From positions 1 through 62,986 of the forward strand of contig JAUREO010000004.1 in assembly GCA_030827365.1 (NCBI GenBank): 62,986 bases of DNA, given 5' to 3'. This DNA is from Poseidonia sp. (lineage in GTDB: Archaea > Thermoplasmatota > Poseidoniia > Poseidoniales > Poseidoniaceae). This document shows positions 16,297 to 19,208 of the stretch, in pieces. Each line of letters opens with the position of its first letter. Positions within the stretch are counted from its first letter, which is position 1. A model generated the notes under the pieces. That model was not told the origin of the DNA. It did no database searches and saw nothing but the letters and a program-made list of their open reading frames with translations. Made by a program: the position numbers and the translations under genes.

Positions 16297-17916
16297 TCAA
16301 CTACTTGAAGGAACTGGGTTTCCTTCCGTGTTCTTGATTTTTTGATTTGTTGCAGGGCGTGAACTCTTTTTCCTACTTTCAAACCAAGTATCGACGCCGT
16401 TCCAATCTGGTTCGATTCCCAAACTGTCGAGAATGAGTTTTGCAGAAATCCTCGCCGATTCGTAAATCACAGGTAGGCCGCTGCCGGGGTGAGTGCCTCC
16501 TCCTACCAAATACAAATTTTTGATTTCGTCAAATTCGTTCTTTGGTCTTCTCCAAAGCATTTGGTCAAGTCCATGTGCTAAATTGAACACAGCACCTCGG
16601 TAACAGTGCTCTCCCCAATCCTCAGGAGTGATGATTAACTCTGTAGCGATGTGGTCCCGAATACCTTCAAAGCCGAGTTTGTCTTCGATCTGATCGAGAA
16701 TCCTTTCTCTGAATGCGTCTTTTTCTTTGGACCAATCTATGTTTTCGTGAATGTGAGAAACGGGTACCAAGACATACACTGTAGAACATCCGTCTGGCGC
16801 GAGTTGTGGGTCTGTTACACATGCGTTTTGAACATACACCGAGGGGTCATCCCACGTGAGTCTGTGATGCTTTTCGATGTCTTCCAAATTGTTGACATAA
16901 TCCTTTGAGGCATAGATTTGGTGATGAGGCAAATGATTGAATGATTTGTTGACCCCGATATACATCATAAAAGTCGAGCAGGAATACTTTTTGTGGTCAA
17001 TTTTCTTGTTCGACCATTTCTTACGAACTGAATCGGGGAATAGACTTGTCATGCCTTGTGCAAAGTCAGCGTTCATCACAACTTTATCAGCGTAAAATCC
17101 ACCATTTTGAGTTCGGAGTCCAAGGATTTTTTTGCCGTCCATGATGACGCCTTCGACAGATTCACCCATGCGGAATGTTACGCCGAGTTCAGTTGCAATT
17201 TCTGCCATTCTTTTTGAAACGCTTCCCAGACCACCGAGAGGATGGAAAATTCCGTATTCGTATTCCAAAAAGGCAAGCATGGTGAAGAGACTTGGACAGT
17301 TAAATGGAGACATGCCCAAGTACTTGGTTTGAAATGACATGGCGAGCATAAGCCTGTCATCATCGAATAATTTCATCAAATCTTTTGCTACTGTTCGCTG
17401 AGGACGGAGAACCTTAGCAACCCGAAGTGCTCTCTTCGAGACCAAATCTGAAGGGCCATACCATGGTTCTTGTAAGCAAGCACGAGATTTATCGAGTTTT
17501 GAGCGGTTGTCAAGAACGTACCGTTCAAACGCTTTTGCATTCTTTTCTCCCGAAAGGTCAGCGATGCGTGAACGCATTTCATCCAAATCACTTGTGCAAT
17601 CCAGTGAACCACCTTGACCGAAGATGAGACGATAATTCATCTCAAGTTTGTGAAGTTTCAATTCTTCGTGTGCATCAAGTCCTACAGCCTTGAAAATATC
17701 TTCAATGACTTCGGGAAAGTGAAAAAATGTTGGCCCCAAATCAAACTTGAAGCCATCTTTTTCGAACACCTTGTTTCTGCCACCGACGCTTTTTGCCCGT
17801 TCAAAAACCGTAACATCAACACCGGCTTTTGCGAGCAATAATGATGCTGCAAGACCACCTGGACCAGCACCGATGATAGCAACTGAAGGTTTTTTGTTGG
17901 TGGACATAAGCATCAC
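16297..17916 (-). CDS. crtI: Phytoene desaturase family protein (CrtI/CrtN)
   Basis: FAD-binding IIGAGPGGL...GGRN, FDLGPT, YSCSTFMMYIG, C-terminal NLYLVGGGTHPGSGLPVIYESA. Confidence 0.93.
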   Translation of the reverse strand: MMLMSTNKKPSVAIIGAGPGGLAASLLLAKAGVDVTVFERAKSVGGRNKVFEKDGFKFDLGPTFFHFPEVIEDIFKAVGLDAHEELKLHKLEMNYRLIFGQGGSLDCTSDLDEMRSRIADLSGEKNAKAFERYVLDNRSKLDKSRACLQEPWYGPSDLVSKRALRVAKVLRPQRTVAKDLMKLFDDDRLMLAMSFQTKYLGMSPFNCPSLFTMLAFLEYEYGIFHPLGGLGSVSKRMAEIATELGVTFRMGESVEGVIMDGKKILGLRTQNGGFYADKVVMNADFAQGMTSLFPDSVRKKWSNKKIDHKKYSCSTFMMYIGVNKSFNHLPHHQIYASKDYVNNLEDIEKHHRLTWDDPSVYVQNACVTDPQLAPDGCSTVYVLVPVSHIHENIDWSKEKDAFRERILDQIEDKLGFEGIRDHIATELIITPEDWGEHCYRGAVFNLAHGLDQMLWRRPKNEFDEIKNLYLVGGGTHPGSGLPVIYESARISAKLILDSLGIEPDWNGVDTWFESRKKSSRPATNQKIKNTEGNPVPSSS

Positions 17917-19208
17917 GTGGTTGAATTTGGTTTTAAAGTCGGGTTTTGTTCCATCTTGGATAAGTTGGCGTGAAAAGTCGGAGGGATAATTGTATTGATG
18001 TCAATAAGTGAAGCAAATTCATCGAGATATGGCCCCATCGAACTGATCAAATCGACGTCTGGATAACCTTTGAGAACCATTCCGTCCATGTACATCAGGG
18101 ACCGAATGATCGGAAATGCTTCCTCGCCAAATGCACAACCAGCAAGGACAGCAGCTTTGACGGTCTTCATCATCTGTTCTGTGAGAGAAACTTCGCTTAC
18201 GGATGTACCGACAAAACCGTCGTATAACTCAAACATAGAATCGTAATATCGCTTGAGTGCCTTTTCAGAAGGAGGCGTTCCTGCCATGGTCAACATTGCA
18301 TCAAATGCGTTCTTCAATTCTCCTTTGGCAAGATAATAGAAAAATCCGAACAAGGCGTTTCGAACATGGACAGGTGCTTCACAAATTGCACCCGTGTCAA
18401 TAAAGGTAAACACTCCGTCATCATCCATCATTGCATTTCCTGGGTGAAGGTCACCATGGAACGACCCAATCCCGAACATGTATGCACCATGAATGCGAAA
18501 GAGTTCCAACATATCCTCCCACCCCATTGATTTCGATTCAAGTCGCTGCTCAAGCGTAGGTGCTTCAATTCTTTCCACGACGAGAATTCTTTCGTTTGAC
18601 AATTCTTTCCAAATTTTTGGAAATTTCAATTTTGGCATTGGAAATGCATCAACATACTCTTTTGCGATGGATTCAAGTTTTTCCTTACCAGAAATTTCAT
18701 TCATGAGATTAAGTTCTCGAAGGGTGTAATCCTCGATGTGAGAAAGCAAACCAATTGGGTTTCCAACCTTCCTCAACTTCGGGCGAAGGAATAAACCGAT
18801 TCGAATCCATCTTTTCATGCGTTGAACATCTTTTCGAAACGACCGTTCAAAATCCGATTTGATGATTTTGACAACAACTTGTGAACCATCTTTAAGTTCT
18901 GCATTGTGGATTTGTCCAATACTTGCGGCTGCAAATGGTTTTTTTTCTATAGAACGAAAGTTTGATAGAAAGTCTTCGTTAGAATGTTTGTTGAGGAGTT
19001 TCTGAGAATCTTCTTCTGGAATTGTAGCTGCCCGGCTGTAGAGTTGTTGAAGTTCTAAACAGCGCTGAGGATCAAGTAAATCGGGACGTAGGGCAAAAAT
19101 TTGCCCCAATTTAACTGCCAGCAGACCCATCGACTGAATTTTGGTAATGTCGACAGGTTTCTTTCCAGTAACCTCTCGATAGAACCGGATGAAAGTGAGA
19201 AGTTTCAT
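17913..19208 (-). CDS. UbiB/ABC1/AarF-family atypical protein kinase-like protein
   Basis: KxGQ (VKLGQ), A-rich loop AAASIGQIH, VVVKI, HGDLHPGN catalytic loop, DTG in place of DFG; stop overlaps the crtI start by 4 nt. Confidence 0.92.
   Translation of the reverse strand: MKLLTFIRFYREVTGKKPVDITKIQSMGLLAVKLGQIFALRPDLLDPQRCLELQQLYSRAATIPEEDSQKLLNKHSNEDFLSNFRSIEKKPFAAASIGQIHNAELKDGSQVVVKIIKSDFERSFRKDVQRMKRWIRIGLFLRPKLRKVGNPIGLLSHIEDYTLRELNLMNEISGKEKLESIAKEYVDAFPMPKLKFPKIWKELSNERILVVERIEAPTLEQRLESKSMGWEDMLELFRIHGAYMFGIGSFHGDLHPGNAMMDDDGVFTFIDTGAICEAPVHVRNALFGFFYYLAKGELKNAFDAMLTMAGTPPSEKALKRYYDSMFELYDGFVGTSVSEVSLTEQMMKTVKAAVLAGCAFGEEAFPIIRSLMYMDGMVLKGYPDVDLISSMGPYLDEFASLIDINTIIPPTFHANLSKMEQNPTLKPNSTT

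Follow-up and report, generated by a model that had tools for sequence, protein, structure and literature searches.

In a 62,986-nucleotide (nt) stretch of DNA from Poseidonia sp. (contig JAUREO010000004.1 of assembly GCA_030827365.1; hereafter the window, i.e., the whole stretch that was analysed), a gene encoding a short ABC1/UbiB-family protein lies directly upstream of a gene encoding a carotenoid-type desaturase, and ABC1 is tightly and non-randomly linked to this desaturase. The two genes recur together in most genomes of the order Poseidoniales as well as in a broad range of bacteria, where the ABC1 protein represents a separate subfamily with the same enzyme partner. The window is contig C67 of a 1.87-Mb genome (G000) that is 88% complete; almost identical proteins carry the label Candidatus Poseidoniaceae (Marine Group IIa). 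The two genes are as follows:

17913-19208, minus strand: short ABC1/UbiB-family atypical kinase/ATPase of 431 amino acids (aa) without transmembrane (TM) segments (PF03109, motifs, and an AlphaFold2 model)
16297-17916, minus strand: CrtI-family flavin adenine dinucleotide-dependent desaturase of the ABC1-linked, CrtN-like subtype (TIGR02734, tree, and PMC9907078)

The ABC1 open reading frame (ORF) is intact and open, starts with ATG, and represents the sole full-length PF03109 match in a profile search of the whole genome (135.5 bits against a cut-off of 22.9, spanning residues 56-300). All of the catalytic motifs that an earlier note on this DNA had described as intact can be read in the sequence, i.e., the KxGQ motif (K33-L-G-Q36), the Ala-rich AAAS loop (A93-A-A-S96-I-G-Q99), H251-G-D253-L-H255-P-G-N258, and I-D271-T-G; K114 is present as well. 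Across 50 subfamily members, K33, Q36, A95, S96, G98, Q99, K114, E165, H251, D253, H255, G257, N258, and D271 are invariant, and only the T and G of the "DTG" motif vary; K114 and E165 would, by their position, correspond to the β3 Lys and the αC Glu, respectively. By sequence criteria, the protein is not a canonical quinone-type UbiB; it falls below the equivalog cut-offs of the UbiB models (TIGR01982, 171.2 bits against 487.55; NF003404, 115.5 bits against 667) and has no hydrophobic segment (maximum 19-residue Kyte-Doolittle mean of 1.32), while one or two C-terminal TM segments were found in each of six long UbiB representatives. An AlphaFold2 model of the protein (predicted local distance difference test score, 86.7; predicted template modeling score, 0.85) has a UbiB-type fold; its top structural matches in the PDB are COQ8A entries 7udq and 4ped (probability 1.0, template modeling score 0.61-0.68), followed by the short mycobacterial proteins MSMEG_1954 and Rv3197, and sequence similarity to PDB entries is weak (E 1e-10 to 1e-14). 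These features are best explained if ABC1 belongs to a distinct subfamily of short ABC1/UbiB proteins and is soluble or peripheral and apparently competent for catalysis.

A search of 1.84 billion representative sequences identified approximately 70 representatives of this subfamily at E≤1e-30, mostly of about 400 aa and ranging from 54% down to about 23% identity, below which scores drop sharply to those of canonical UbiB proteins of 530-580 aa (approximately 110-137 bits, 24-29% identity); in a tree, the short ABC1 proteins group together as a clade (100% support; branch length, 2.7). All ABC1 proteins of other Thermoplasmatota are of the long type (187-266 bits, with most open frames at 500-650 aa), and a search of Thermoplasmatota found no ABC1 in the sister family within the same class. 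The sample used for comparisons beyond the archaea consists of the best 80 matches to one query profile, with one genome per species, and is not random; it comprises four Poseidoniales loci and 76 loci here called bacterial, one of which belongs to a Woesearchaeote. Most genomes examined, the bacterial ones included, are metagenome-assembled genomes (MAGs). The 76 loci represent Thermodesulfobacteriota, Verrucomicrobiota, Lentisphaerota, Kiritimatiellota, Fibrobacterota, Ignavibacteriota, Bacteroidota, Acidobacteriota, Bacillota, Mycoplasmatota, Fusobacteriota, Pseudomonadota, Chlamydiota, and several phyla of the candidate phyla radiation (CPR). Named members of the subfamily include Cetobacterium, Ilyobacter, Psychrilyobacter, Desulfobacterium, Clostridia, Latescibacterota, and Coatesbacteria. 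Overall, the short, TM-less subfamily occurs in more than 20 bacterial phyla and is common in CPR bacteria, Fusobacteriota, and Acholeplasmataceae, which are mostly quinone-free lineages.

Linkage within Poseidoniales was assessed by searching 121 species genomes with PF03109 and TIGR02734 and comparing coordinates. ABC1 and the desaturase were both present in 85 genomes and both absent in 28, with seven genomes carrying only the desaturase and one carrying only ABC1, on a contig that ends about 180 nt past the ABC1 domain match (Fisher test over the 121 genomes, phylogeny ignored, p = 8e-20). With regard to gene order in the 85 genomes with both genes, 41 have the desaturase as the next gene downstream of ABC1 on the same strand, and in 16 a single gene intervenes (57 together); in the others, the two genes are within 10 kb of each other in seven, on different contigs in 13, and 72-83 kb apart in eight, all of which belong to genus g2. 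Rearranged orders (i.e., ABC1-synthase-desaturase and desaturase-synthase-ABC1) were also seen, indicating that these genes have been re-joined and not merely left in place. Rhodopsin (PF01036) shows a similar distribution, as 73 genomes carry rhodopsin, ABC1, and the desaturase and 28 carry none of the three; the stress island that contains the ABC1 pair has been gained and lost together with rhodopsin in Poseidoniales. As a negative control, ABC1-CrtI adjacency was found in none of eight other Thermoplasmatota that have a long UbiB as well as a CrtI, and many other Thermoplasmatota carry ABC1 or CrtI without the other.

Among the 76 bacterial loci, 65 have a gene for a CrtI-family protein of 480-540 aa within 3 kb of the short ABC1 gene, and in 47 the two genes are immediate same-strand neighbors, with either one first; the flavoprotein is encoded on the opposite strand in eight loci, and a DUF2141 gene separates the pair in another configuration (8/76). 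Four of the 11 loci without a CrtI-family gene within 3 kb are at a contig edge. When approached from the flavoprotein side, ABC1 was directly upstream in four of six contexts, and in the isolate genome of Psychrilyobacter atlanticus the two genes are 2 nt apart. The adjacency pointed out in the earlier note is thus not peculiar to this genome, as it is found again across Poseidoniales and in more than 20 bacterial phyla. Bacterial partner flavoproteins are 40-44% identical to the window desaturase over their full length (approximately 345-400 bits), compared with 25-33% identity between the window desaturase and the unlinked CrtIs of other Thermoplasmatota, and they share its NCBIfam profile (TIGR02734, approximately 430-480 bits, with no equivalog cut-off reached).

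Trees were built from quick searches, with support from the Shimodaira-Hasegawa-like approximate likelihood ratio test only and with the root on a long branch; in these trees, ABC1-linked flavoproteins are separated from unlinked CrtIs as a clade with 99% support, and the Poseidoniales sequences make up a monophyletic group with a long stem in the ABC1 tree as well as in the flavoprotein tree. Coinciding subclades were observed for (i) CPR, (ii) Fibrobacterota, (iii) Acholeplasmataceae/Bacillota, (iv) Ignavibacteriota-Bacteroidota-Delongbacteria, (v) Fusobacteriota, (vi) Acidobacteriota with a gammaproteobacterial pair, and (vii) Verrucomicrobiota. This largely congruent pattern indicates that the pair has been inherited and transferred as a unit, and its breadth in bacteria, combined with its absence from the rest of the archaeal phylum, suggests that Poseidoniales gained the ABC1-flavoprotein pair from bacteria. 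The view that this is a special archaeal arrangement hence has to be abandoned in favor of a bacterial-type two-gene module, found in more than 20 phyla, of which Poseidoniales represent a single clade in both trees. Fusions of ABC1 and the flavoprotein were looked for and none was found; a 710-aa apparent fusion ORF in locus L132 is an ORF-calling artefact across two separate genes. A search of the available literature found no paper that pairs crtI or crtN with ABC1, UbiB, or AarF, and the ABC1-CrtN-like module appears to be undescribed.

Two further features of the bacterial loci were observed. DUF2141 represents a recurrent third gene of the module (11/76 loci; e.g., L098:919-2563 and L100:8001-9769), in the order flavoprotein-DUF2141-ABC1 or ABC1-DUF2141, and a DUF2141 gene adjoins crtG in Sphingomonadales (PMC5989583). 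In addition, a Patescibacteria MAG (GCA_049604715.1; L202:2682-6524) encodes a CarH/LitR-like regulator with a MerR-type helix-turn-helix and a B12-binding domain divergently upstream of the pair, which hints at light control of the ABC1/CrtN-like module in this CPR bacterium.

With regard to what the desaturase makes, the gene that follows it in the window is relevant:

15286-16287, minus strand: head-to-head prenyl synthase (SQS_PSY), HpnD-like paralogue (PF00494, 201.9 bits)

The best NCBIfam match of this synthase is HpnD (177.9 bits, below the cut-off of 278.6), while CrtB models yield 91-137 bits (136.9 for cyanobacterial CrtB) against cut-offs of 480-550. On contig C105 (positions 1083-4474), genes for HpnE (cut by the contig end), HpnC (272.9 bits, above the cut-off), and an HpnD-like protein stand in a row, making up a squalene pathway of the bacterial type in an archaeon, in line with what has been reported for the class (PMC9907078). 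The window desaturase itself scores 476 bits with TIGR02734 (cut-off 238) without reaching any equivalog cut-off and falls into the ABC1-linked clade, not with the CrtIs of crtI-crtY-blh clusters; a second, canonical CrtI found in eight Poseidoniales scores 628-650 bits and is approximately 33% identical to it. Its assignment to CrtN follows a published phylogeny (Santana-Molina et al. 2022, PMC9907078), as no reference-enzyme tree was made here; these authors placed a Poseidoniia amino oxidase in CrtN (C30 desaturase) with hpnD in its context, reported HpnCDE or Sqs in Poseidoniia, and found Poseidoniia to be without CrtP, CrtQ, and AldH. Based on this phylogeny, the profile scores, and our tree, the "crtI" and "crtB" labels of the earlier note are better replaced by CrtN-like and HpnD-like, respectively, i.e., by a C30 squalene route; the HpnD-like synthase probably supplies a C30 precursor, and the product is more likely to be an acyclic C30-type polyene.

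A role of these genes in retinal synthesis appears as doubtful as the crtI-crtB label. The window genome yielded no match to Blh (PF15461) or CrtYcd (PF18916) and no full-strength match to CrtY (PF05834), for which only weak matches of 20-34 bits were found (two at the Rossmann end and one over the full span, at 29.8 bits), compared with 138-151 bits for true CrtY proteins of relatives; as the genome is 88% complete, absence of a lycopene cyclase and of Blh is probable, not certain, and it argues against retinal as the product. Marine Group II has also been listed among the rhodopsin holders without blh (PMC7734400). Within Poseidoniales, Blh was found in eight of 121 genomes and a full CrtY in four of 21, in every case in a separate cluster with the second, canonical CrtI and without ABC1; this rarity and separation led us to rule out a retinal-pathway role for the module. 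The "crtI-crtB" genes of Marine Group II, most genomes of which have no cyclase or Blh, can hence be re-read as more likely representing a C30-type pigment module. Genomes with Blh and the second CrtI include G096 (C32:8515-12958), G040 (C10), G082 (C21), G074 (C10), and G114 (C114); a full-length CrtY was seen between Blh and CrtI in G096, the only one of the eight that was searched for CrtY, and some matches in these clusters contain in-frame TGA codons. Either a bacterial retinal cluster was acquired horizontally by these genomes or the bins are contaminated.

The bacterial hosts complicate this assignment, as 27 of 50 genomes that carry the short ABC1 have no SQS_PSY gene (23 have one), and those without it include genomes of 5-7.5 Mb as well as Saccharibacteria genomes of 0.6-0.7 Mb. 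Reading ABC1 as a "dedicated carotenogenesis factor", as had been proposed, is too narrow given that so many hosts have no squalene or phytoene synthase. The spread of the module across small and large genomes alike also favors an alternative, i.e., that the substrate of the pair, even in Poseidoniales, is not an endogenous C30 or C40 carotenoid precursor but another lipid (e.g., a polyprenyl lipid, squalene as a membrane lipid, or an imported lipid), and that the link to pigments is secondary. Consistent with this alternative, Clostridia, Fusobacteria, and some Fibrobacteria have been reported to carry CrtN without a head-to-head synthase, with the suggestion that in the first two of these groups CrtN "could have other functions" (PMC9907078), and the lack of CrtP, CrtQ, and AldH in Poseidoniia points in the same direction. 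By contrast, the HpnD-like synthase is encoded within four genes on either side of ABC1 in 36 of the 83 Poseidoniales ABC1 loci for which neighborhoods were counted (with ORFs clustered), and co-occurrence with rhodopsin and a light-stress island, the CarH/LitR-like regulator beside the pair in the Patescibacteria MAG, and the connection of DUF2141 with crtG all speak for a pigment. We consider action on such another lipid unlikely, albeit the strongest of the competing explanations.

In the current model of COQ8 function, a lipid-stimulated ATPase makes prenyl intermediates accessible to the enzymes of a pathway. By analogy, our preferred explanation, to which we would give slightly better than even chances, is that the window ABC1 assists a CrtN-like lipid desaturase as an ATP-dependent accessory protein and that it was recruited in Poseidoniales into a light-stress island. 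ABC1 may use ATP binding and hydrolysis so that a very hydrophobic, bilayer-buried substrate can reach the monotopic desaturase or, alternatively and also by analogy with COQ8, it may assemble or activate the desaturase at the membrane. The substrate would likely be squalene or a dehydrosqualene-type C30 chain, and the product an acyclic polyene pigment that could serve in photoprotection; physical or functional coupling between the two proteins is presumed in either version. A more general proposal, i.e., that the short ABC1 and the CrtN-like flavoprotein constitute a widespread and obligately cooperating two-component lipid-desaturase system, in which a UbiB-family ATPase presents or extracts a bilayer-buried isoprenoid, is more tentative, and we would rate it as somewhat less probable than an even chance. 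If this proposal is correct, carriers of the system would include more than 20 bacterial phyla (including CPR, Mollicutes-related bacteria, and strict anaerobes without squalene or phytoene synthases) as well as Marine Group II, an unknown lipid substrate would be implied in the hosts without a synthase, and the module would represent the first minimal, non-quinone, prokaryotic system for a direct test of the biochemical function of UbiB.

A number of observations weigh against these proposals. Two Poseidoniales genomes (G049, L194:2157-6282; G085, L195:1676-5793) contain RibA-peroxiredoxin-regulator-CrtN-like arrays without ABC1; in these natural "knock-outs", ABC1 is cleanly absent despite retention of the desaturase, and one of them has rhodopsin, which indicates that ABC1 is not obligatory and is dispensable in some lineages. 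Furthermore, some CrtN-like genes have no ABC1 neighbor, Cetobacterium has ABC1 without the flavoprotein, and co-loss in Poseidoniales may have resulted from few deletions of adjacent genes and not from many independent events. The large share of hosts without an SQS_PSY gene also means that the substrate of the module cannot be generalized from Poseidoniales. Finally, whether UbiB proteins act as ATPases or as protein kinases is unsettled, and kinase activity has been reported for AtABC1K6 (PMC8956952).

The genes around the pair bear on this last point. On the minus strand, the order is RibA, peroxiredoxin, regulator, ABC1, CrtI-family desaturase, and SQS_PSY synthase, with a divergent arm on the plus strand; the features in addition to those given above are:

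19250-20650, minus strand: TrmB-type winged-helix regulator with an MsvR-like C-terminal domain (PF01978, NF053755)
20651-21115, minus strand: peroxiredoxin (profile matches)
21134-21733, minus strand: GTP cyclohydrolase II RibA (profile matches)
21812-22333, plus strand, divergent arm: NUDIX hydrolase (profile matches)
22330-23829, plus strand, divergent arm: class II photolyase (profile matches)

RibA, peroxiredoxin, the regulator, and the divergent photolyase constitute a conserved light/oxidative-stress island, in which ABC1, the desaturase, and the synthase are located. In the regulator, a TrmB winged helix (residues 7-68) is joined to an NF053755 MsvR match (residues 335-444), and the protein is a candidate for the redox or light sensor of this island. 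No upstream neighbor of ABC1 is more common in Poseidoniales; the regulator is at position -1 in 55 of 82 loci. Of 80 loci, position +1 is occupied in 40 by the desaturase, in 17 by an amine-oxidase-family protein of 412-417 aa, in seven by a short-chain dehydrogenase/reductase (SDR), and in seven by the synthase; peroxiredoxin and RibA are encoded within four genes on either side of ABC1 in 59 and 61 of 83 loci, respectively, and the divergent position of the NUDIX hydrolase and photolyase is conserved. In Poseidoniales, ABC1 is hence tied to the regulator at least as tightly as to the desaturase.

This position next to the regulator supports an alternative in which ABC1 is a regulatory protein kinase of the stress island, which phosphorylates the TrmB/MsvR-like regulator or the desaturase and thereby tunes expression or activity; in genus g2, ABC1 stays with RibA, peroxiredoxin, and the regulator, with the desaturase 72-83 kb away, all of its catalytic residues are intact, and some plant ABC1K proteins are reported to show protein kinase activity (PMC8956952). 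In bacteria, however, the regulator is found in none of the 76 loci and the flavoprotein is the conserved partner, and three Poseidoniales loci (L004, L010, and L013) have ABC1 and the desaturase without the regulator. The best structural match of the ABC1 model, moreover, is COQ8A, in the structure of which (4PED) the KxGQ domain occludes the cleft for protein substrates, also arguing against this alternative. We judge a regulatory kinase to be improbable, and a little more so than action on another lipid.

Two further explanations seem highly improbable. An ordinary UbiB for respiratory quinone synthesis that merely lies beside carotenoid genes would fit the "ubiquinone biosynthesis protein" annotation in some sources and the presence of only one ABC1 in an aerobic heterotroph, but we rejected it on scores far below the UbiB equivalog cut-offs, the missing TM anchor, the separate clade, and co-loss with the desaturase and rhodopsin in 28 Poseidoniales genomes that still respire, in addition to the frequency of the subfamily in largely quinone-free lineages. 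Inherited synteny or joint horizontal transfer without any functional link, for which it can be said that each of the two genes seems to have reached Poseidoniales in a single event (one clade on a long stem in each tree) and that adjacent genes get deleted together, has an equally slight chance of being correct. The pair has persisted across more than 20 phyla, where at least four arrangements of it occur (either gene first, divergent, or separated by DUF2141), was re-joined in different orders within Poseidoniales, and often has junctions of 0-15 nt or overlapping ones.

The junction and the upstream region of ABC1 in the window provide some information on how the pair may be expressed. The ABC1 gene ends with ...ACG TGA (with GTGATGCTTATG), and the junction with the desaturase gene reads GTGATG; a desaturase start at GTG 17916 yields a 4-nt GTGA overlap with ABC1, a start at ATG 17913 a 1-nt overlap (TGATG), and a start at ATG 17907 places the desaturase 5 nt past the ABC1 stop. 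A stop/start overlap as described in the earlier note is thus present, as GTGA or TGATG, but the specific ATGA overlap it named is not. Two elements precede ABC1:

19230-19237, minus strand: TATA-like box TTCAAATA, from 29 to 22 nt before the ATG of ABC1, with its first T at 29 nt
19241-19249, minus strand: A-rich element AAAAAACGG, directly upstream of the TATA box

The TATA-like box, the position of which had been given correctly in the earlier note, sits within the 41-nt spacer between the regulator gene and ABC1. With TATA-like defined as at least seven of eight positions matching TTNAWAWA, a match upstream of ABC1 was found in 36 of 83 Poseidoniales loci; the box begins 28-30 nt from the ABC1 start codon in 27 of the 83 and at exactly 29 nt in 23, and its occurrence at this spacing is more than chance. 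The A-rich element could be a candidate transcription factor B recognition element or a regulator site; a composite pattern of AAC[GA]N, 3-6 nt, and a TATA-like box was found upstream of ABC1 in 33 of 83 loci, compared with 84 of 1188 other ORFs in the same loci. Leaderless transcripts are common in archaea, and a TATA box approximately 29 nt before the ATG is suited to a leaderless or near-leaderless transcript; ABC1 thus probably has its own promoter of a leaderless or near-leaderless type, and the conserved spacing supports the proposal of a separate transcript that starts at ABC1. In other Poseidoniales loci, the spacer before ABC1 is only -8 to 12 nt long and contains no box, so that read-through from the regulator gene is also likely.

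Several other genes were observed near ABC1 or the CrtN-like gene in Poseidoniales. An Amino_oxidase-family protein of 406-417 aa without an NCBIfam match is encoded after ABC1 in some loci (L003:5242-6492, L006:7288-8541, and L007:5295-6533) and remains next to ABC1 in genomes in which the CrtN-like gene has been displaced by 72-83 kb; a 25%-identical relative is encoded beside an SDR gene in the window genome (C111:25817-27037). The 412-417-aa form was considered as the true partner of ABC1 and rejected, as it scores approximately 40-50 bits against the bacterial partners compared with approximately 390 bits for the 539-aa desaturase. Genes for an ABA4-like membrane protein (PF14108) and a protein of approximately 195 aa follow the CrtN-like gene in several loci (L006:10778-11836 and L009:4703-5173) and are also found together in the window genome (C31:29068-30125); the one member of the approximately 195-aa family that was scanned (L003:8152-8772) had no Pfam match. 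Finally, in one Poseidoniaceae genome (G106, L005:6559-7278), a divergent gene for a CarF/TMEM189-like protein (PF10520 Lipid_desat, 137.7 bits) lies between the CrtN-like gene and ABC1; in Myxococcus, light-induced carotenogenesis depends on CarF, a plasmalogen desaturase.

The UbiB/ABC1 family is of ancient origin and occurs in all domains of life; members are mutated in human coenzyme Q deficiency and are needed for photoprotection in plants, while their mode of action, as ATPase, lipid extractor, or protein kinase, is debated. To our knowledge, the well-studied members are all embedded in quinone or plastoglobule systems with many components. As the pair described here recurs in most of an archaeal order and in more than 20 bacterial phyla, it could serve as a simple model for the family; its conservation extends from CPR bacteria to ocean archaea, cultured anaerobes (e.g., P. 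atlanticus) carry it, and, as a two-gene module with a colored product, it would allow for a visual assay in E. coli with and without the kinase.

Among known systems, COQ8A/COQ8B (ADCK3/4), yeast Coq8, and E. coli UbiB, i.e., atypical kinases or ATPases of ubiquinone synthesis, share PF03109 with the window ABC1 as well as the KxGQ motif, the Ala-rich loop, HxDxHPGN, and the Mg-binding Asp; in both cases the associated enzymes have a long prenyl lipid as their substrate, and the modeled fold is closest to COQ8A. The window ABC1 differs in that it is only 17-29% identical to these proteins, is approximately 130 aa shorter than bacterial UbiB, has neither the N-terminal extension nor the C-terminal TM helices, and has a CrtI-family desaturase, not quinone hydroxylases, as its partner. 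The mycobacterial proteins Rv3197 (MABP-1) and MSMEG_1954, which are 439-452 aa long, soluble, and solved in complex with ATP or ADP, are the best PDB sequence matches of the window ABC1 (E 1e-14 and 2e-12, respectively); however, they are only about 19-20% identical to it in structural alignment and have been described as macrolide-binding ATPases, and the window ABC1 scores 65.6 bits with NF050082 against a cut-off of 800. We know of no CrtI-family partner of these mycobacterial proteins and of no ABC1 gene in Staphylococcus-type crtOPQMN operons.

Plastoglobule ABC1K1, ABC1K3, and ABC1K6, Chlamydomonas EYE3, and the ABC1Ks of cyanobacterial lipid droplets are eukaryotic or cyanobacterial long forms; they are reported to be genetically tied to lipid bodies rich in carotenoids or prenylquinones and to light stress (PMC3084665, PMC8956952, PMC12223511), and they differ from the module described here in having no operon context and no defined enzyme partner. 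The CrtN proteins of the published phylogeny, the holders of which include Clostridia, Fusobacteria, Fibrobacteria, Verrucomicrobia, and Acidobacteria (PMC9907078), show the same taxon spread as the ABC1-linked partner identified here, while the terms "kinase" and "UbiB" are absent from the main text of that study. Experiments on a CrtN from Planctomycetes were also part of it, and crtN of Planctopirus limnophila has been examined genetically. A link of ABC1 proteins to prenyl lipids and carotenoids has thus long been known from plastids and algae; what is new here is a distinct UbiB subfamily with a defined and conserved enzyme partner.

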